6,299 bases of DNA from a virus, in IMG/VR virus record IMGVR_UViG_3300020030_000075, positions 1-6,299 of that record, one strand, 5' to 3'. Under the pieces are notes generated by a model. The model saw only the letters and a program-made list of their open reading frames with translations, had not been told where the DNA came from and did not search any database. Position numbers and translations under genes: made by a program. How positions within the stretch are numbered: the first letter of the stretch is position 1; every line of letters starts with the position of its first letter. Positions 1-6,299 of the stretch are shown here, in pieces.

Positions 1-121
1 AGGCACAAGGTACTTCCCAGTTGCTTGATGCTGAAGCTAAGACCGTTCTTAACAGGTATCTTGACCAACAGCAGCAGGCTGATCTGAATGTCAAGGCTTC
101 TGAGTATTACAACCAGATGTC
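1..121. repeat. Terminal direct repeat: assembly overlap of a circular genome, identical to 6179..6299
   Basis: Read base by base: 1..121 is the same string as 6179..6299. The offset is 6178 nt. The repeat lies inside a coding frame that closes across the junction. Confidence 0.95.
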
Positions 122-452
122 TCATGGTCATTTGAATTATAGCCAGGCTAAAAAGGTTCTTGCTGATGAGGTCTTGACTTATGCTCGTGCTAAAGGTCAA
201 AAGATTAGCAACAAGGTTGCTGAAGCTACTGCTGATTCTTTGATCCGTGCTTCTAACGCAACTAATCATTCGAATGCTGAATTTGAATCTGAAGCTGCTA
301 AATTTAACCGCGAACGTGCTCGTTCTCGTAGTATTGAGGATTGGTATCGTTCCCGTAATGAAGGCAAGAAATATAAGTATTATGACGCCGATAAGGCCGT
401 TCATTATGGTACTGCTATTGGCAATACTGTAGGAAACTTTCTGCCCTGGTAG
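1..452 (+). CDS. VP2: VP2 minor capsid / DNA pilot protein, C-terminal part, continuing 5569..6299 across the circular junction
   Basis: The first full codon starts at 3 and the stop is TAG at 450..452. Position 21 corresponds to 6199, which is in the same frame as the ATG at 5569 (both are 1 mod 3 in genome coordinates). The track start at 21 (TTG) is therefore an artefact of the window edge. The sequence is Q/N/A-rich and coiled-coil-like with a basic tail (RERARSRS, KKYKYY), as expected for microvirus pilot proteins. Confidence 0.85.
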   Translation, partial: AQGTSQLLDAEAKTVLNRYLDQQQQADLNVKASEYYNQMSHGHLNYSQAKKVLADEVLTYARAKGQKISNKVAEATADSLIRASNATNHSNAEFESEAAKFNRERARSRSIEDWYRSRNEGKKYKYYDADKAVHYGTAIGNTVGNFLPW

Positions 453-853
453 TATCTTCTGCTTTTTTGTTTATTGTGTGTTTACCCGGCTCGTAGTGAT
501 ACGCGTCGGGTTTTGTTGCTTGGAGTAACTTCCGGCAACCGCGCGTAGCGTGGTTATACACCTACTGAATTCCGGGAGACTCGTCGACTGGAATCAGAGC
601 CGTTAGGCTATAGTACTGCCATCCTGGAAACTTGACGCTTGCAACGCGTAGGCAATCTCCCGGAGAACTTCTCTCTGCCGTCGCCGCTATACCCCTAAAA
701 TATTGTTTGACGAAGTCTACATGAGTTTGTCCGGAGGAAAAGCGATTTACCTCATCGCTTTCAGTCTCCCCTTGTCTTATATACGCAAACTCACAGACTA
801 GCCTGCCACCCGCATAGCTTATTGTTTATTAATGTTAATATTTCACGTTGACA
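453..853. other. ORF-free, GC-enriched, highly self-complementary intergenic region; candidate complementary-strand origin and/or structured RNA
   Basis: No ORF of 60 aa or more on either strand. Hand count of 541..600 gives 33/60 G+C. Coding stretch 3541..3600 gives 21/60 G+C and 31/60 T. Helices I could pair by eye: 484..511; 515..539; 537..555 (8 bp, 3-nt loop); long-range 571..579 with 656..664 (9 perfect bp); 598..609; 733..769 (perfect 8-bp core AAAGCGAT/ATCGCTTT); and an enclosing helix 715..730 with 785..798. Confidence 0.6.
484..518 (+). terminator. Candidate rho-independent terminator downstream of VP2
   Basis: The stem is A-CCCGGC-(T)-CGTA, loop GTGA, TACG-(C)-GTCGGG-T at 484..511, with one internal mismatch and a GNRA-type loop. 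T-rich TTTTGTTG follows at 511..518. It sits about 30 nt after the VP2 stop codon. Confidence 0.5.
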
Positions 854-886
854 TTTGCTTTATTCAAATTTTTGTTCATATCTTTG
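854..886 (+). promoter_or_regulatory. Candidate Bacteroidetes-type promoter (-33 TTTG / -7 TAnnTTTG)
   Basis: TTTG lies at 854..857, followed by a 21-nt spacer and then TATCTTTG at 879..886. This matches the Bacteroides primary-sigma consensus as I recall it (TTTG, roughly 19-21 nt, TAnnTTTG). It lies about 40 nt upstream of the first ORF of the gene string (ATG at 928). A TTGACA hexamer at 848..853 directly abuts the -33 TTTG. Confidence 0.4.
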
Positions 887-927
887 CCTCTGTCTTTAAA
901 ACATGTCTAATTTAAATTTTTGATTTT

Positions 928-1101
928 ATGGAAAAGTATTATCTGTGTTCTATTCAGTCGAAGGTAAATCCTAATCAGAACGAGACTGTTCTTGTACCCG
1001 TTGACGAAGTTTCTGCATTCGTTTCTTCAAATCTTCGTCCGGACTGTATTCTCATCCTTTCTCAATGTTCAACTTTTAAAGCCATTTCTGATGAAAAGTG
1101 A
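928..1101 (+). CDS. Hypothetical small protein, 57 aa (MEKYYLCSIQSKVNPNQNETVLVPVDEVSAFVSSNLRPDCILILSQCSTFKAISDEK)
   Basis: ATG at 928 and TGA at 1099..1101. It is absent from the track, presumably because it falls below the length cut-off. Third codon positions are T-rich, like the confirmed genes. It is the first ORF after the promoter-like motif. I recognise no family. Confidence 0.4.
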   Translation: MEKYYLCSIQSKVNPNQNETVLVPVDEVSAFVSSNLRPDCILILSQCSTFKAISDEK

Positions 1102-1180
1102 AACTAAATCTAAAATCTGGTCTGCTGTTATTGCAGCTGCTGTCAGCCTTCTTACGTCTATTGCCCAAATTTTTTCGTAA
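1091..1180 (+). CDS. 29-aa signal-peptide-like / single-TM mini-protein (MKSETKSKIWSAVIAAAVSLLTSIAQIFS); candidate holin-like partner or detached signal peptide of the downstream peptidase
   Basis: ATG at 1091 and TAA at 1178..1180. The layout is a charged N-region (MKSETKSK), a hydrophobic stretch of about 17-20 aa, then small residues S-I-A. It is in the same frame as the peptidase gene, which starts 3 nt after the stop. The track's TTG-started 992..1180 version adds an F/L-rich off-frame-looking extension, which I do not trust. Confidence 0.4.
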   Translation: MKSETKSKIWSAVIAAAVSLLTSIAQIFS

Positions 1181-1183
1181 GTC

Positions 1184-1492
1184 ATGAACCCCGAATTAAT
1201 GAAATTCCTTGGATGGCTTCTCTGTCGGAATGTCCATTTTACTGTTACTTCTGCTTTTCGTACCAAGGAACAGAATGAGGCATGTAATGGTTCTAAAACT
1301 TCTCAGCATCTGACTGGAGACGCCGTTGATCTTAAGCCTGTCGACCTTACGGTTGATGGTTTCCTCTCGTTGGTTAGGGTTTCTCCCTTTAAATTTGACC
1401 AACTTATAAAATATCGCACATTTGTTCATGTTTCCTTTGCTCGTGGCCGTAATCCTCGTCAAATGGAATTAGATTTTACAGATAGAAAATGA
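1184..1492 (+). CDS. Zinc D-Ala-D-Ala carboxypeptidase-like peptidase (Peptidase M15 / LAS-type), putative endolysin, 102 aa
   Basis: VTSAFRTKEQNEACNGSKTSQHLTGDAVDL matches the M15_3-type core (SGYR..N..GG..SxH..GxAxD) as I recall it. The H-x6-D pair is H42 and D49, and a second His (H82) lies in TFVHVSF. The ATG is at 1184. The TGA at 1490..1492 overlaps the VP4 start (ATGA). Confidence 0.85.
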   Translation: MNPELMKFLGWLLCRNVHFTVTSAFRTKEQNEACNGSKTSQHLTGDAVDLKPVDLTVDGFLSLVRVSPFKFDQLIKYRTFVHVSFARGRNPRQMELDFTDRK

Positions 1493-3198
1493 TTACTAAG
1501 GAATTGCAGAATAAGCTGGTGACTCGTTGTCAGCATCCTCGTACGGTTATTAATAAGTACACGCGCGAGCCCGTTGTTGTTTCTTGTGGCTCTTGCCCGT
1601 CTTGTATTCTTCGTCGTTCTGGTGTTCAGACCAACCTTCTCACTACTTATTCTACCCAATTCCGTTATGTATATTTTGTTACTCTTACTTATGCTCCTTG
1701 TTTCCTCCCTACTTTGGAAGTTTCGGTTGTTGAGACTTGTACGGATGATATCGCGGATGTTTCCGTCGTTCCCGATATTGATGACTTGGACCCTGGTGAC
1801 CCTAACACTTATTTGTTTGGTTTTCGTAGCGTTCCTCGTTCTGCCTCTGTTAAGTTAAAAACCTCTACTGTTGAGCGTACCTTCAAAGACTCCGAGATAA
1901 AATTTTCTTATCCTATGAAACCTAAGGATTTATTGTCTATTCTTGGTAAGATTAACCATAATATTCCTAATAGGATTCCTTATGTATGTAATCGTGATCT
2001 TGATTTATTTTTGAAACGTTTAAGAAGTTACTACCCAGATGAAAAATTACGTTACTACGCTGTATCAGAATATGGGCCGACTAGTTACCGCCCGCATTGG
2101 CATTTGTTATTGTTTTCCAATTCCGACCGATTCTCGCAAACTGTTCTTGAAAATGTATCTAAAGCTTGGTCTTATGGTCGTTGTGATGCGTCACTCTCGC
2201 GAGGATTCGCAGCTCCGTATGTTGCGTCGTATGTTAATAGTTTTGTCGCTTTACCCTCTTTTTATACGGAGATGCCAAGATTATTGCGACCAAAATCCTT
2301 CCACTCCATTGGATTTACAGACTCAAATCTCTTCCCTCGAAAGGTCCGAATTGCCGAAATTGATGAAGTTGCCGATAAGTGTCTTAATGGAATACGCGTT
2401 GAACGGGATGGCTACTTTCGGATTCTTAAGCCTTCGTGGCCGTATATCCTTCGATTATTCCCCCGATTTTCAGACTCTATTCGTAAATCTTCATCGAGTA
2501 TTTACCAGCTATTATCTGCTGCGTTTACAGCGCCCGAACGAGTCATTCGTAGCGGATTCTCTGATTTGAGTTGTGACCCTTTTAACCCTAATCCTCTGTC
2601 TAAACAGAGCTTATTGTCTTTTTGTAAACAGTATTTAAATTATGTAGATAATTATGGAAAGGAATATTCTTCAAAAAATTTACTTGTACCAAAGGAAAAT
2701 TTACCGTATAGCGATATTCTTGTTCTTACTGAATGTCGTCTCTATGATGGTGTTAATTTGGACCCGGATTTTCGTTTATCCCGCTGCTATCGATTCTTTC
2801 TCTCGATGTCTAAATTCTTTCGGACATATTATGATGAGTTCGGAGCAAACTTCTATCCCGAGTCCGAGCGATATGCCGGCTGCTTTGCGTGTCGAGACAG
2901 AACGTTTCGAATCCTCTCCGAATCAATAGTATCCTTTTGGAATCGTTATGACTATAATCGTCTGGTTGATTTTTATCAGACTTTGGAAGATTCCAATGAT
3001 AAGGATTTGGTTGATTTTGAGCTTCGTAATTATTCGTTTCGTTATAATAGGATTGACTTTGGTAAGAAAGCGGAGCCCGATTATCAAAAACTTCCTCTTG
3101 TTCGTCGTTTGGCCGCCGCTGCATTGATTAAATGCAGGGATAAGGTCAAACACAAGAGGTTGAATGATTTGTCTGGTATCTATTCTTACTCTGATTAA
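1489..3198 (+). CDS. VP4: Replication initiation protein VP4 (HUH rolling-circle endonuclease, phiX174 gpA-like), 569 aa
   Basis: RCR motif I FVTLTY lies at 1675..1692. The HUH motif HWHLLLF lies at 2095..2115. The two-tyrosine motif YVASYVNS lies at 2218..2235 (Y-x3-Y, close to the YVAKYVNK I recall in phiX174 A). There is an N-terminal Cys cluster (C14, C33, C36, C39; SCGSCPSC). Confidence 0.93.
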   Translation: MITKELQNKLVTRCQHPRTVINKYTREPVVVSCGSCPSCILRRSGVQTNLLTTYSTQFRYVYFVTLTYAPCFLPTLEVSVVETCTDDIADVSVVPDIDDLDPGDPNTYLFGFRSVPRSASVKLKTSTVERTFKDSEIKFSYPMKPKDLLSILGKINHNIPNRIPYVCNRDLDLFLKRLRSYYPDEKLRYYAVSEYGPTSYRPHWHLLLFSNSDRFSQTVLENVSKAWSYGRCDASLSRGFAAPYVASYVNSFVALPSFYTEMPRLLRPKSFHSIGFTDSNLFPRKVRIAEIDEVADKCLNGIRVERDGYFRILKPSWPYILRLFPRFSDSIRKSSSSIYQLLSAAFTAPERVIRSGFSDLSCDPFNPNPLSKQSLLSFCKQYLNYVDNYGKEYSSKNLLVPKENLPYSDILVLTECRLYDGVNLDPDFRLSRCYRFFLSMSKFFRTYYDEFGANFYPESERYAGCFACRDRTFRILSESIVSFWNRYDYNRLVDFYQTLEDSNDKDLVDFELRNYSFRYNRIDFGKKAEPDYQKLPLVRRLAAAALIKCRDKVKHKRLNDLSGIYSYSD

Positions 3199-3224
3199 TA
3201 TGTTTCACTAAATTATTTTTTTTT

Positions 3225-5072
3225 ATGGCTTCTTACACCGGAATGTCCAATCTTCAGAACCATCCTCACCGTTCTGGATTTGATATTGGACGTAAAAATG
3301 CTTTTACTGCAAAGGTTGGTGAGCTTCTCCCTGTCTATTGGGATATTTCTATGCCTGGTGACAAGTATAAGTTTAACGTTGAGTATTTCACCCGTACTCA
3401 GCCTGTTGAAACTTCTGCTTATACTCGGTTGCGTGAATACTTTGATTTTTATGCTGTGCCGTTGCGTCTTCTCTGGAAGTCTGCGCCTTCTGTATTGACA
3501 CAGATGCAGGACGTCAACCAGATCCAGGCTTTGTCTTTGACACAGAATTTGGCTCTTGGTACTTATTTGCCTTCTCTTTCTTTGTTTCGTTTATTTGATG
3601 CTATCAGCTATCTTAATGGCAATTCTTCAAATCCGGATAGTTCATCTGGTTATAAAAACTCTTTTGGTTTTTCTCGTGCTGATTTGTCTTTCAAATTGTT
3701 GAATTATCTTGGTTATGGAAATTTTATTTCTTCTGCCCCTTCTGATAATTCTCGTTGGTGGTCTACATCTTTACGAAAAAATAGTGCCTCGTCGTCTTAT
3801 TCTCAACAGTATATCCAGAATAGTATTGTAAATCTTTTCCCTCTTCTTGCTTATCAGAAAATTTATCAGGATTTTTTCCGTTGGTCTCAGTGGGAAAATA
3901 GCAATCCTTCTTCTTATAATGTTGATTATTTCACGGGAACTTCTCCTCAGTTGGTTGATTCTTTGCCTAATTTGGCTTCTAACTATTGGAAATCCGATAC
4001 AATGTTTGACCTCAAATATTGCAACTGGAACAAGGACATGCTGATGGGTGTTCTCCCGAATTCCCAGTTTGGAGATGTTGCTGTAATTGACCTTCCTACC
4101 GGAGGTGCCAGCCTTACTGTTGCTGATACTAATGGCTCTCTGCATCCTGTTGGTACTGCTACTGTCATGTCTTCTGGCATTGCTACTTCTCCTGTCGGTG
4201 TTCAGTTGTCTTCCGGTCAAACGGTAAAAGCTGGTTCTATCTTTTCTGTTGATGTTAAGGATATTGCTTCTAAGTTTACGGTTCTTGCCCTTCGCCAGGC
4301 CGAAGCGCTTCAGCGTTGGAAAGAAATCAGTCAGTCCGGTGATTCCGACTATCGTGAACAGATTCGCAAACATTTTGGTGTGAATTTGCCCCAGGCTCTT
4401 TCCAATATGTGCACCTATATTGGTGGTATCTCCCGTAACTTTGATATCAGTGAGGTTGTGAACAATAACCTTGCTGCTGAAAAAGATACTGCCGTTATTG
4501 CCGGTAAGGGTGTCGGTGCAGGAAACGGTTCTTTCACTTATACTACTGATGAACATTGTGTCGTTATGTGCATTTATCATGCCGTTCCTCTTCTCGATTA
4601 CACTATTACTGGCCAGGACGGTCAGTTGTTGGTTACTGACGCCGAGTCCCTCCCGATTCCGGAGTTTGATAATATTGGTATGGAGGTTCTTCCTATGACG
4701 CAGATTTTCAATTCTCCGAAAGCTTCTGTTGTCGATTTGTTCAATGCTGGATACAATCCTCGTTATTTCAACTGGAAGACCAAGCTTGATGTCATTAATG
4801 GTGCCTTCACCACTACTCTTAAGTCTTGGGTTTCTCCTGTTACCGAGTCTCTCCTTTCCGGATGGTTTGGTTTTGGTTATCAAGAAGGTGATGTTGACAA
4901 GAATACCAGGGTTGTTTTGAATTATAAATTCTTTAAGGTTAATCCTTCTGTTCTTGATCCTATTTTCGGCGTTAACGTTGATTCTACTTGGGATACTGAC
5001 CAGTTGTTGGTTAATTCTTATATCGGTTGCTATGTTGCCCGTAATTTGTCTCGTGATGGTGTACCTTACTAA
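3225..5072 (+). CDS. VP1: Major capsid protein VP1 (Microviridae F-protein family), 615 aa
   Basis: N-terminus: NLQNHPHRSGFDIGRKNAFTAKVGELLPVYWDISMPGDKYKF. Internal: LLAYQKIYQDFFRW and LRQAEALQRWKEISQSGDSDYREQIRKHFGV. These are the conserved blocks I recognise from microvirus capsid proteins, and the FTAKVGELLP form is the Alpavirinae-like flavour. The ATG is preceded by a T9 run (3216..3224) with no Shine-Dalgarno sequence. Confidence 0.95.
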   Translation: MASYTGMSNLQNHPHRSGFDIGRKNAFTAKVGELLPVYWDISMPGDKYKFNVEYFTRTQPVETSAYTRLREYFDFYAVPLRLLWKSAPSVLTQMQDVNQIQALSLTQNLALGTYLPSLSLFRLFDAISYLNGNSSNPDSSSGYKNSFGFSRADLSFKLLNYLGYGNFISSAPSDNSRWWSTSLRKNSASSSYSQQYIQNSIVNLFPLLAYQKIYQDFFRWSQWENSNPSSYNVDYFTGTSPQLVDSLPNLASNYWKSDTMFDLKYCNWNKDMLMGVLPNSQFGDVAVIDLPTGGASLTVADTNGSLHPVGTATVMSSGIATSPVGVQLSSGQTVKAGSIFSVDVKDIASKFTVLALRQAEALQRWKEISQSGDSDYREQIRKHFGVNLPQALSNMCTYIGGISRNFDISEVVNNNLAAEKDTAVIAGKGVGAGNGSFTYTTDEHCVVMCIYHAVPLLDYTITGQDGQLLVTDAESLPIPEFDNIGMEVLPMTQIFNSPKASVVDLFNAGYNPRYFNWKTKLDVINGAFTTTLKSWVSPVTESLLSGWFGFGYQEGDVDKNTRVVLNYKFFKVNPSVLDPIFGVNVDSTWDTDQLLVNSYIGCYVARNLSRDGVPY

Positions 5073-5086
5073 ATCTTGTTTTGATT

Positions 5087-5569
5087 ATGATTGGAAAATT
5101 TAATAGTTTGGATAGTCTGGAACAAGGTTCTGGACTTACCCCTAATGTTACTCCGGATGCTTTTGCAGTTGCTCCCGAATTTGATTCTACCGAGCAGCTT
5201 CGTGTTGAAATTTATGATAACGAAGAAGACCGTCCGGTGCGTTATACTTCTGATATTCGTCTGATTCTTCATACCAAGGACTTGGCTTCCCGTGCCGGTC
5301 TTGCTGTTGCCTCCAAGTTTGGACAGAACAAGCAGTCCGTCTCTCAGATTCAGCAGATTATGGACAGGATGTCTGACGATGACCTTTTGTCGACGGTTCG
5401 CTCCCGTCATATCCAGTCTCCTTCTGAGATTATTGCCTGGTCTAAGGAGTTGTCGGCTTATGCTGAAAATCTTGAAGCCCAGGCACAGGAATTGATTGAT
5501 GCTGAAAACGCTAAACAAGAAGCAGAAAAGGCGGCTGCTGCTTCCGCCGATGCTGCTTCCTCTGAATAA
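5087..5569 (+). CDS. Hypothetical acidic protein, 160 aa; positional candidate for the internal scaffolding protein (VP3-like)
   Basis: The first ATG is at 5087; the track begins at a TTG at 5081. The gene lies between VP1 and VP2. It has an acidic, Ala/Glu-rich helical C-terminus (AQAQELIDAENAKQEAEKAAAASADAASSE). Its TAA (5567..5569) overlaps the VP2 ATG (TAATG). The function is inferred only from position and composition. Confidence 0.7.
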   Translation: MIGKFNSLDSLEQGSGLTPNVTPDAFAVAPEFDSTEQLRVEIYDNEEDRPVRYTSDIRLILHTKDLASRAGLAVASKFGQNKQSVSQIQQIMDRMSDDDLLSTVRSRHIQSPSEIIAWSKELSAYAENLEAQAQELIDAENAKQEAEKAAAASADAASSE

Positions 5570-6299
5570 TGGGTCTTCTTGGTTCAATCACTGGTGGTCT
5601 CCTTGGTATTGGCTCTTCTGTGGTTCAGAATTCGCAGAACAGACAAAATGTCCGGGAGACTAACCAGATGAACTATAAGATAAATCAGATGAACAACCAG
5701 TTTAACGAACGTATGGCGATACAGCAGCGTAATTGGCAGGAGAATATGTGGAATAAGGAAAATGCTTATAACACTGCTTCTGCCCAGCGTCAACGTCTCG
5801 AAGAAGCTGGTTTGAATCCTTATCAGATGATGAATGGCGGTTCTGCTGGAACTGCACAATCCGTTGGTTCTGGTGCTTCTGCCTCTTCTGCTGGTTCTGC
5901 CGTCATGCAGCCTTTCCATGCTGATTATTCCGGTGTTCAGCAGGCTATCGGTTCTGTATTCCAGTCCCAAGTTCAGCAGGCTCAAGTTTCACAGTTACAA
6001 GGTCAGAAAAATCTTGCTGACGCCCAGGCTATGCAGGCTCTTTCCAATGTTGATTGGTCTAAGATGACGAAAGAAACCCGTGAGTATCTGAAAGCTACTG
6101 GCTTGGCTCGTGCTCGGCTTGGTTATTCCAAAGAAATGCAGGAACTTGATAATATGGCTTTTGCCGGACGTCTTCTCCAGGCACAAGGTACTTCCCAGTT
6201 GCTTGATGCTGAAGCTAAGACCGTTCTTAACAGGTATCTTGACCAACAGCAGCAGGCTGATCTGAATGTCAAGGCTTCTGAGTATTACAACCAGATGTC
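5569..6299 (+). CDS. VP2: VP2 minor capsid / DNA pilot protein, N-terminal part; open to the window end and continuing at 122 after removal of the duplicated 121 nt
   Basis: My translation from the ATG at 5569 has no stop before the window end, which is why it is missing from the track. It reads MGLLGSITGGLLGIGSSVVQNSQNRQNVRETNQMNYKINQMNNQFNERMAIQQRNWQENMWNKENAYNTASAQRQRLEEAGLNPYQMM... The N-x-M/N-rich block ending in AGLNP is the conserved microvirus VP2 signature I recognise. There is a Gly-rich hydrophobic N-terminus. The full product is 353 aa (610 nt + 452 nt). Confidence 0.85.
   Translation, partial: MGLLGSITGGLLGIGSSVVQNSQNRQNVRETNQMNYKINQMNNQFNERMAIQQRNWQENMWNKENAYNTASAQRQRLEEAGLNPYQMMNGGSAGTAQSVGSGASASSAGSAVMQPFHADYSGVQQAIGSVFQSQVQQAQVSQLQGQKNLADAQAMQALSNVDWSKMTKETREYLKATGLARARLGYSKEMQELDNMAFAGRLLQAQGTSQLLDAEAKTVLNRYLDQQQQADLNVKASEYYNQM
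6179..6299. repeat. Terminal direct repeat, second copy of 1..121
   Basis: Identical string to 1..121. Confidence 0.95.

Follow-up and report, generated by a model that had tools for sequence, protein, structure and literature searches.

Complementary-strand origins have, to our knowledge, been defined only for a few coliphages and plasmids. The primosome assembly site of phiX174 is a single PriA/n' hairpin of about 55 nucleotides (nt) in the F-G spacer and works through a multi-protein primosome. The Ff phages (M13, f1 and fd) hold in one intergenic region of about 500 nt the hairpins for complementary-strand priming, the viral-strand origin and the packaging signal, flanked by a terminator and a promoter. 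Rolling-circle plasmids carry single-strand origins (sso; the ssoA, ssoU, ssoT and ssoW types) of 150-300 nt that are folded, orientation-dependent, modular and host-specific, and that are exchanged between replicons with unrelated Rep proteins. Here we compare with these systems a noncoding region of a microvirus: positions 453-927 of a 6,299-nt stretch of viral DNA (IMG/VR record IMGVR_UViG_3300020030_000075, positions 1 to 6,299), which we call the window.

This region, a desert in a genome otherwise filled with open reading frames (ORFs), is a composite of a terminator-like hairpin at 485-518, a structured core at 533-811 and a promoter match at 854-886. An earlier sequence-only reading, in which the composite build had not been seen, had proposed that it is structured single-stranded DNA (ssDNA) used as a complementary-strand origin or priming site, and this is the reading that the + strand fold, the mini-hairpins, the position and the orientation of the element support best. 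We favor, with moderate confidence, a core (about 533-811) that would be a cis-acting virion-strand replication-origin cassette, used chiefly by a host enzyme to prime the complementary strand. If it also holds the viral-strand origin, as is probable, the region would correspond in microviruses to the Ff intergenic region.

Comparison with Described Origins

The G4-type origins (G4, St-1, phiK and alpha3) share with the core an intergenic position on the packaged strand, several hairpins and strand specificity, as well as a c(GNNA)g cap (CGGCGAAAGCCG in G4, GGCGTTAGCC in alpha3 and AGCCGTTAGGCT here) with CTG-C within a few bases; in both cases the reader is presumably a host enzyme and not a phage protein. 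They differ in having no homology to the core, in carrying one mini-hairpin where the core has four to five, and in size and build, the core being about 280 nt in two modules and the G4 F-G spacer about 135 nt. The spacer to CTG is 6-7 nt here and 3 nt there, CTG is not invariant among relatives of the window, and the probable host belongs to the Bacteroidales.

With the Ff phages, the window shares a single noncoding region in a gap-free ssDNA genome and the presumed co-location of both origins, although the family is another and there is no homology. In Ff, RNA polymerase primes on promoter-like hairpins, whereas no evident mimic of a Bacteroidetes promoter is present here; a candidate in module B (TGAGTTTG against TAnnTTTG) was rejected, as it matches at 7/8 positions only and the upstream TTTG is not conserved. 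As for packaging, we know of no packaging hairpin in microviruses. The sso elements resemble the core in being noncoding, folded and orientation-dependent, and their exchange between replicons has a parallel in the cross-clade exchange seen here, but they belong to plasmids, mostly of Gram-positive bacteria. A likeness between the ssoA CS-6 motif (TAGCGT) and GCGTAGCGT in the window was set aside, its T being the free N of a GNA loop that reads GAA, GCA or GGA in relatives.

The phiX174 site is likewise an intergenic packaged-strand hairpin that nucleates complementary-strand priming, again with no homology to the core. Our scan for mini-hairpins, defined by a C.G-closed GNA or GNNA loop on at least three stem pairs, finds none in the phiX174 F-G spacer and two on the + strand elsewhere in that genome. 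One of the two, CCCCGAAGGGG at 4331-4341 (L097; L numbers denote records of our collection), lies 25 nt 3' of the annotated viral-strand origin (4306), so mini-hairpins can also accompany viral-strand origins. RSF1010 ssiA/ssiB and the N4 promoters share with the core initiation as folded ssDNA with CCGAAGG-type or GGA/GAA caps (PMC13037366), and CCGAAGG itself occurs in relatives of the cassette (GCCGAAGGC, CCCGAAGGG). Their readers are encoded by the elements themselves (the RepB' primase and N4 vRNAP), whereas the window phage encodes neither. As a kind, the element would be a known one, a single-strand origin of an ssDNA replicon; a family that combines dense mini-hairpins, modular build and cross-clade exchange we have not found described.

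A Noncoding Region More Constrained than the Genes

About 80 genomes, drawn from GenBank phages, IMG/VR and metagenomes, supplied homologous regions. The conservation figures that follow are nucleotide identities over 45 near-complete relatives, in which the capsid and Rep proteins have only about 75-90% identity to those of the window. Identity reaches 96.3% over 520-563, 91.5% over 722-800 and 90.4% over 484-515, against 75-84% for every gene, which is below the core.

As the sequence-only reading had stated, 453-927 is free of ORFs: none of at least 50 amino acids (aa) exists on either strand, the largest being 48, 32 and 30 aa. Moreover, 92 of the 99 insertions and deletions relative to relatives are not multiples of 3, and together with the lack of a shared ORF this rules out a small conserved protein gene over the region. 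From the indel pattern and from identities above gene level, the region is noncoding and constrained more than the proteins. In Dulem virus 257 (L002, PP511330) a hypothetical protein of 67 aa, XCD03224.1, is annotated at 1672-1875 and covers modules A and B of the core; since the ORF is not kept in relatives, it is probably a mis-annotation. Several public 'hypothetical protein' calls over the region are probably spurious, which yields a practical annotation rule.

The earlier description of the desert as GC-richer and balanced in composition holds for the core alone (520-800; 49.5% GC, 26% T). The entire desert has 42.9% GC against 41.7% for the genome, and 801-927 is AT-rich with 28% GC. 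The underlying hand counts of G+C (33/60 at 541-600 and 21/60 at 3541-3600) were exact, and every oligonucleotide that had been quoted stands where it had been placed.

The stability of the fold says little on the refuting criterion set in the sequence-only reading, a folding energy no better than that of shuffled controls. Against dinucleotide shuffles, the folding z is -2.2 for the + strand and -1.85 for the - strand with RNA parameters, and -2.39 and -1.56, respectively, with DNA parameters; this is marginally better than the shuffles and too weak alone to establish a structure. Because the thermodynamics is nearly neutral, the evidence for structure is comparison and covariation.

A Covarying Fold on the + Strand

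Our curated model of 52 base pairs, built on 34 homologues, is 99.0% paired and has 10 pairs with two-sided compensatory changes. None of 500 shuffles attained the observed values, and pairing falls to 29-41% once the 3' partners are slid; the covariation model, the shuffles and the slid controls together establish the structure. Conservation and covariation are thus both present in related genomes (45 relatives and 34 homologues). G.T wobbles are conserved in four helices and would be A.C mismatches on the complementary strand, and the fold therefore belongs to the + strand.

Module A of the core (533-686) is defined by the RNAalifold consensus and by pair counts. Its closing helix, CGGC 533-536/GCCG 683-686, is 100% paired with one-sided C/T and G.T changes only, and its limits are those of the segment common to the window, mar45, mar40 and mar62. 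The interior has been swapped for unrelated, hairpin-rich sequence in L020/L053/L056/L058, in L035 and in Dulem virus 262, with the ends conserved. At the 5' end stands the core hairpin, AACCGCGC-GTA-GCGTGGTT (537-555), followed by ATACACC (556-562). It has a GNA triloop and an invariant G.T wobble and contains GCGNAGC. Its loop takes GTA, GAA, GCA or GGA, the G and the A being fixed; a C.G pair becomes T.A in the mar viruses, and in mar49 the stem is longer through compensating insertions. In Dulem virus 262, 43 nt of the core are 100% identical to the window although the virus is otherwise distant.

The hairpin CTGA.TTCCGG ... CTGGAA.TCAG (565-597), which has a variable tip, covaries: TTCC/GGAA becomes TTTC/GAAA by two-sided change in 12 of 34 sequences, and CTGA/TCAG becomes CCGA/TCGG in L017 and mar45. 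It is followed by the mini-hairpin AGCC-GTTA-GGCT (598-609) and the single-stranded TATAGTA-CTG-CCATCC (610-625), which together form a candidate priming site. This stem covaries as well (AGCC/GGCT against ATTCAC/GTGAAT in the mar viruses), with loops of GTTA, GTCA, GCCA, GAA or GTAA among relatives, and the unpaired TATAGTACTGCCATCC is identical in the window, mar62, mar45 and mar40. The hairpin ACGC-TTGCAAC-GCGT (635-649), with a conserved CTTG before it, is 99.3% paired, and C-to-T changes in 7 and 15 of the 34 sequences turn two of its pairs into T.G wobbles where the other strand would mismatch.

Between the modules lie CTATACCCC (687-695), the second copy of TAWACMCC, and the mini-hairpin GAC-GAA-GTC (709-717). 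The former marks the 3' boundary of an exchangeable insert, GCTAWACMCC being found at the 3' end of all four insert types. The latter has three pairs and reads GGC-GAA-GCC, which contains GCGAAGC, in most relatives; it covaries through four variants (GAC/GTC, GGC/GCC, GGT/ACC and GAT/ATC), two pairs changing two-sidedly in 11/34 and 7/34 sequences.

Module B is bounded by the outer helix TGAGTTTG/CAAACTCA (722-729/786-793), which encloses the mini-hairpin TCC-GGA-GGA (730-738), the hairpin AAAGCGAT-TTACCTC-ATCGCTTT (739-761) and the conserved unpaired stretch CAGTCTCCCCTTGTCTTATATACG (762-785). Compensatory variants include G744/C756 to T/A in 14 of 34 sequences and CCC/GGG to CCT/AGG in L026. 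Nine nt 3' of the module, CTGCCACCC (803-811) is a direct repeat of 616-624 and the second copy of CTGCCAYCC; it is kept as CCTGCCACCC in most relatives. The motifs CTGCCAYCC and CARTCTCCC recur in both modules.

The helices that had been picked out by eye fare unequally against this model. The outer helix of module B, 722-729/786-793, stands: it is invariant in close relatives and carries the compensatory change G725C/C790G in mar63. The helix 571-579/656-664 is perfect in the window and appears in the single-sequence DNA fold, but across relatives it is 83% paired without covariation and is mutually exclusive with the covarying hairpin 565-597, so that perhaps a GGG/CCC core only is real. 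The proposed pairing of GTC 715-717 with GAC 796-798 is 71% paired and is contradicted, as GTC pairs with GAC 709-711 in the covarying G-R-Y-GAA-R-Y-C mini-hairpin, and the supposed hairpin 733-769 is really the two hairpins 730-738 and 739-761. We also observe that GGGAGACT (574-581) pairs perfectly with two downstream TCTCCC tracts, at 656-664 and 763-770, of which relatives keep GGG/CCC only; these contacts could be alternative or tertiary pairings, or chance.

Mini-Hairpins with DNA-Type Loops

The scan finds four c(GNA/GNNA)g mini-hairpins on the + strand of 520-800, against 0.12 expected and a count that 0 of 2000 shuffles reach, and none on the - strand. Over 58 distinct genomes there are 3.59 per cassette on the element strand, compared with 0.05 on its complement and 0.056 in an equal length of the remaining genome, an enrichment of about 60-fold that is confined to the element strand. 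A census of the loops in these genomes counts 233 GNA triloops, and 48 of the 55 tetraloops are GTTA, GTCA or GCCA, hence not GNRA. The loops are DNA-type, not RNA-type.

In the complementary-strand origins of G4, St-1 and alpha3, the site where primase starts bears mini-hairpins of the GCGNAGC and GCGNNAGC kinds, and mini-hairpins also occur in RSF1010 ssiA (CCGAAGG) and in the promoters that phage N4 uses in single-stranded form (PMC13037366, a 2026 review). As positive controls, our scan flags CGGCGAAAGCCG at G4 3975-3986, within the annotated RNA primer of replication (3970-3997), and GGCGTTAGCC, the alpha3 origin hairpin, in the G-H spacer. In both phages three bases lie between the hairpin and CTG-C (CGGCGAAAGCCG..CTA-CTG-C in G4, GGCGTTAGCC..CTC-CTG-C in alpha3). 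The window shows a parallel layout at 598-621, where AGCC-GTTA-GGCT is followed by TATAGTA and then by CTG-CC.

A comparable arrangement exists in a cultured phage, phiHBP1, which infects Bacteroides fragilis (PMC13064476). It has the same genome plan and, between pilot and rep, a non-homologous cluster of mini-hairpins (GGC-GGAA-GCC, CC-GGAA-GG, GCGAAGC, ACGAAGT, TGCGAAGCA and GCGAAAGT) at gene-sense 3820-3990, with none on the antisense strand. This analogous cluster points to a Bacteroidales host for the window phage and offers an experimental system. In the phiHBP1 record (L095, PV598014), a 136-aa protein, CNECMEOK_00004, is annotated over the cluster at 2326-2736 on the minus strand; it has no Pfam match, and the annotation may be spurious and the region a noncoding, origin-like one.

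Orientation of the Cassette and Exchange between Clades

In all of the about 80 collected genomes that have the core hairpin, the cassette lies on the T-rich strand. By BLAST, module A and the genes are on opposite strands in mar45 (L060, MZ089791), mar40 (L061, MZ089786) and mar49 (L062, MZ089795), and these three, with L053 (IMGVR_UViG_3300006476_000087) and L091 (PPYF01309261.1, from a metagenome), are five genomes whose genes are on the other, A-rich strand. At fourfold sites, the coding strand of mar45, mar40 and mar49 has 41-64% A and 9-11% T, the mirror image of the window with 55% T and 12.5% A; the gene-sense strand of L053 and L091 has overall 41-43% A and 19% T. In G4, phiX174, alpha3, Chp1 and the cultured phiHBP1 it is the coding strand, which is packaged, that has 46-69% T and 7-17% A. 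A C-to-T bias is known on single-stranded phage DNA (PMC4032129) and agrees with a T-rich packaged strand.

The inversion of the cassette relative to the genes seemed at first to contradict a function in the packaged strand; with the mirror-image composition, it fits such a function. In the inverted genomes the wobbles and GNA loops are kept on the T-rich strand, and in mar45, mar49 and L091 the promoter motif is found adjacent to the element on the strand of the genes. A rule of orientation such as this is expected of an element that is read in the packaged single strand, and neither an RNA gene nor a duplex-DNA site would readily account for it.

The five A-coding genomes belong to a single clade, with capsids 52-71% identical to that of mar45 and about 23% to that of the window. 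Variants of the cassette are nevertheless common to both clades, L053 matching L020 at 90% identity over 308 nt and L091 matching the window at 83% over 177 nt. By these identities, the cassette has moved between the clades at least twice, each time keeping its T-rich-strand orientation.

Parts of the cassette are exchanged as well. The stretch of about 120 nt between the 5' hairpin with ATACACC and the 3' GCTAWACMCC exists in at least four unrelated versions, those of the window, of L020/L053/L056/L058, of L035 and of Dulem virus 262/L070, each with a c(GNA/GNNA)g hairpin. The TAWACMCC copies that bound the insert (556-562 and 687-695 in the window) are seen with L020, L053, L056, L058, L035, L003 and L070, and may be where recombination takes place or Rep terminates. 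In mar63, module B is present and module A is missing. We also noted further shared noncoding modules, which are additional exchangeable parts: g(CTTG)c-capped hairpins (GCCG-CTTG-CGGC, GTCG-CTTG-CGAC) with a GAGCCGGATAGCCCG block, located in mar49 (L062) at about 4560-4760 on the minus strand, in mar63 (L009) at 1380-1440, and downstream of module A in L020, L048, L053, L056 and L058.

We put forward tentatively, at slightly under even confidence, that the cassette decides which strand a microvirus packages and would be an exchangeable two-origin module, swapped within one host group, with the mar45 clade as the first negative-sense microviruses. Because the cassette is inverted against the gene block, the phages of that clade might package the complement of all their mRNAs, a reading toward which we are close to evenly divided but do not quite lean. 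We found no description of negative-sense microviruses or of Alpavirinae noncoding regions in the literature. If true, the orientation rule would imply a microvirus lineage with its genes on the non-packaged strand, and would overturn the assumption that all Microviridae are positive-sense.

Proposed Mechanism and Alternative Explanations

In the mechanism that we envisage, host single-strand-binding protein would coat the circle after injection, while the cluster of very stable c(GNA)g/c(GNNA)g-capped hairpins would stay folded and exposed. A conserved host factor, either the primase or RNA polymerase acting as primase, would read the invariant core hairpin together with the adjacent single-stranded TATAGTA-CTG-CCATCC and CTGCCACCC, and would lay an RNA primer, from which the circle would become the double-stranded replicative form. 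Transcription from the promoter at 854-886, running round the genome as far as the hairpin at 485-518, would be possible only then. The core hairpin is near-identical in phages whose Rep proteins are unrelated (29% over 66 aa between the window and mar45, 35% over 79 aa between the window and Dulem virus 262), and a conserved host factor is for this reason the simpler reader. The viral-strand origin, at which Rep would nick, is probably also in or next to the cassette, because the cassette flips with strand asymmetry.

Several points weigh against this proposal. Priming, the primer start site and the host factor are all inferred, and the strand-linked evidence would be the same if this strand carried a viral-strand origin, a site bound by Rep, or a packaging signal, the last of which the sequence-only reading had also named. 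In blastn against 50,697 phage records there is no homology to any characterized origin. The CTG is lost in 3 of 34 relatives, and it is a preference of the E. coli primase that may not be that of the host. The folding energy, as given above, scarcely beats shuffles. That the T-rich strand is also the packaged strand in the A-coding clade is suggested by composition, and the terminator and promoter are motif calls, so that read-through transcription of the core is possible.

The rival that shares most of this evidence holds that the cassette is mainly a viral-strand origin, which Rep binds and nicks and which perhaps couples the displaced strand to packaging, with no complementary-strand priming. 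Such an origin would by definition flip with strand asymmetry, and the exchange of the insert is bounded by two direct TAWACMCC copies, as if Rep starts at one and ends at the other. Unpaired CTTG tracts (CTTGAYG at 631-637 and CCCCTTGTCTTATATAC in the module B loop) resemble CTTG/ATA, the nick motif of phiX174 and pC194-type replicons, and the CCCCGAAGGGG mini-hairpin of phiX174 is near the annotated viral-strand origin. The tracts at 631-637 and 771-785 are, however, variable at key positions when set against the 30-nt CAACTTG/ATA of phiX174: the base after CTTG may be A, C or G, and CTTG itself is CTCG in mar62 and L023. A core hairpin that stays near-identical despite unrelated Reps also fits a host factor better than a phage Rep, and we consider an exclusive role of this kind unlikely. 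As an additional function it is compatible with the priming role that we prefer, and both origins may be present, as in Ff. We think it improbable that the core is instead a structured noncoding RNA, either stand-alone or as an untranslated regulatory element of phage transcripts, an option that the sequence-only reading had left beside its conservative one. Covariation and G.U-compatible wobbles would fit a + sense RNA equally well, the element is co-oriented with the genes in the clade of the window, where terminator read-through could reach the core, and in mar40 a single promoter-like motif occurs about 370 nt upstream of the element, on the antisense strand. But 453-927 has no Rfam match at E up to 10 and no tRNA or tmRNA by ARAGORN (three weak Rfam matches elsewhere in the window, SNORD18, SAM_alpha and Rothia-sucC, are below gathering scores and due to chance), no promoter lies upstream of the core, which a terminator-like hairpin precedes, and the GNA triloops and non-GNRA GNNA tetraloops are not of RNA type (GNRA, UNCG). 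Every gene of the A-coding clade runs antisense to the element, and four of the five genomes lack a promoter motif on the element strand; nor has an RNA gene any reason to keep its T-rich-strand orientation through two or more transfers.

Two further explanations come out lower still. The folded ssDNA might be a Xer-type attachment site for integration at the host dif, as in the CTX phage. Such integration has been proposed for the Bacteroidetes microvirus prophages BMV1-7, whose dif-like att sites occupy this very pilot-rep interval, upstream of rep, and some of which have two dif-like sites in a CTX-like manner (PMC3091885); an att site that folds as ssDNA would likewise be bound to the packaged strand. 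Yet neither a dif consensus nor a relaxed XerC/XerD-arm match within 3 mismatches occurs anywhere in the window, and phiHBP1 did not lysogenize (PMC13064476). The core hairpin pattern has 0 matches in 185,579 species genomes, a search with the capsid protein returned short stray contigs only and no prophage, and the metagenome matches with the cassette are all free, microvirus-sized contigs, which makes an attachment site very improbable. The same count of 0 among the 185,579 genomes speaks against a host-derived recombination segment, which had also been suggested. The ends of an IS200/IS605-like or other mobile element were considered and rejected: there is no right-end hairpin and there are no copies outside microviruses, and the element always occupies the same intergenic slot. 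Least probable of all, in our view, is a mere spacer between terminator and promoter, with structure as a by-product of shared ancestry and local GC. The weak folding z would agree with it, as would the many helix positions that are invariant and hence uninformative on structure. The comparative data contradict it, however: an inert spacer would hardly be conserved above every gene, or show ten compensatory pairs, a collapse of pairing in slid controls and a 60-fold strand-specific enrichment in mini-hairpins, and it would not be kept in orientation across clades with about 23% capsid identity.

As a probable single-strand origin, the cassette is a candidate for how gut Bacteroidales microviruses turn the injected single strand into a transcribable duplex. 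It is searchable by sequence, in that the core hairpin pattern is present in about 80 genomes and the motif grammar also picks the regions of G4, alpha3 and phiHBP1. From its distribution, microviruses that are very distant but have a host in common seem to exchange replication modules.

Putative Flanking Transcription Signals

Outside the core, the + strand of the desert begins with a T-rich spacer after the stop codon of the pilot gene (453-484), the least conserved part with 69% identity where aligned. The intrinsic-terminator-like hairpin follows, with CCCGGC.CGTA-GTGA-TACG.GTCGGG at 485-510 and TTTTGTTG at 511-518. It is conserved and has compensatory variants (TCCGGC/GCCGGA in L023, CCCAGT/GCTGGG in L019 and CCCGAC/GTCGGG in L018), and mar62 has a different hairpin with a T-run at this position. 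A simple terminator scan makes no call at 485-518, where the stem is interrupted. As the hairpin is missing beside inverted cassettes, it belongs to the gene block, not to the cassette, and it is the probable transcription-unit end for the capsid, scaffold and pilot genes.

On the 3' side, an AT-rich conserved spacer (ATTGTTTATTAATGTTAATA...; 812-853), in which conservation is about 81% over 801-850, leads to the promoter match at 854-886, consisting of a -33 TTTG (854-857), 21 nt, and a -7 TAtcTTTG (879-886). The consensus TTTG-N19-21-TAnnTTTG, which we take to be the Bacteroides promoter type, has its sole match in the genome here, both strands considered, and a match is found downstream of the cassette in 44 of 52 genomes. 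A sigma-70 promoter scan gives nothing, as expected for a Bacteroidetes-type host. Positions 887-927 are the probable 5' untranslated leader of the next gene, whose ATG is at 928 (ORF 928-1101) and whose start is conserved as ATGGAAAAG in relatives. With a terminator-like hairpin preceding it and a promoter match following it, the core sits in the gap between the presumed end and start of transcription. There is one such promoter match and one terminator-like hairpin, about 335 nt upstream of the promoter, and the genome may be a single transcription unit that runs nearly full circle.

Genome and Relatives

The first 121 nt of the window recur at its end (1-121 = 6179-6299), a terminal redundancy that shows it to be one circular microvirus genome, 6178 nt long; its + strand carries all genes. 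The pilot protein gene spans both window ends, starting from about 5570 and ending at 452 (ORF 21-452). After the desert come a 57-aa ORF (928-1101), an M15 peptidase recognized by a domain match (1184-1492), Rep (1489-3198), the major capsid protein (3225-5072) and the scaffolding protein (5081-5569). Rep and the M15 peptidase are the phage's only enzymes with a recognizable domain.

The nearest records are fecal microviruses of lemurs, rodents and marmots, at about 82% genome identity, and the element is also present in human-gut contigs. In blastn, positions 440-940 match 16 gut microviruses only among the 50,697 phage records, and no Bullavirinae. A search of IMG/VR with the mar-type core pattern returned 0 matches, and a loosened hairpin pattern found 27 microvirus contigs in metagenomes; L077 and L089, pattern matches in large contigs, were discarded as chance, both being without the hairpin. 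Three contigs of 1.4-3.5 kb in Saccharospirillum, Marinomonas and Chitinophaga assemblies (L063, L064 and L065) encode capsids 49-79% identical to that of the window; the assemblies are of unrelated marine and soil bacteria, and the contigs look like stray microvirus sequence more than prophages. The contig L086 (OFMB01009805.1, 2731 nt) is palindromic, each of its strands bearing the cassette at the mirror position 912; most probably it is a chimera from amplification or assembly, and conceivably a replication intermediate.

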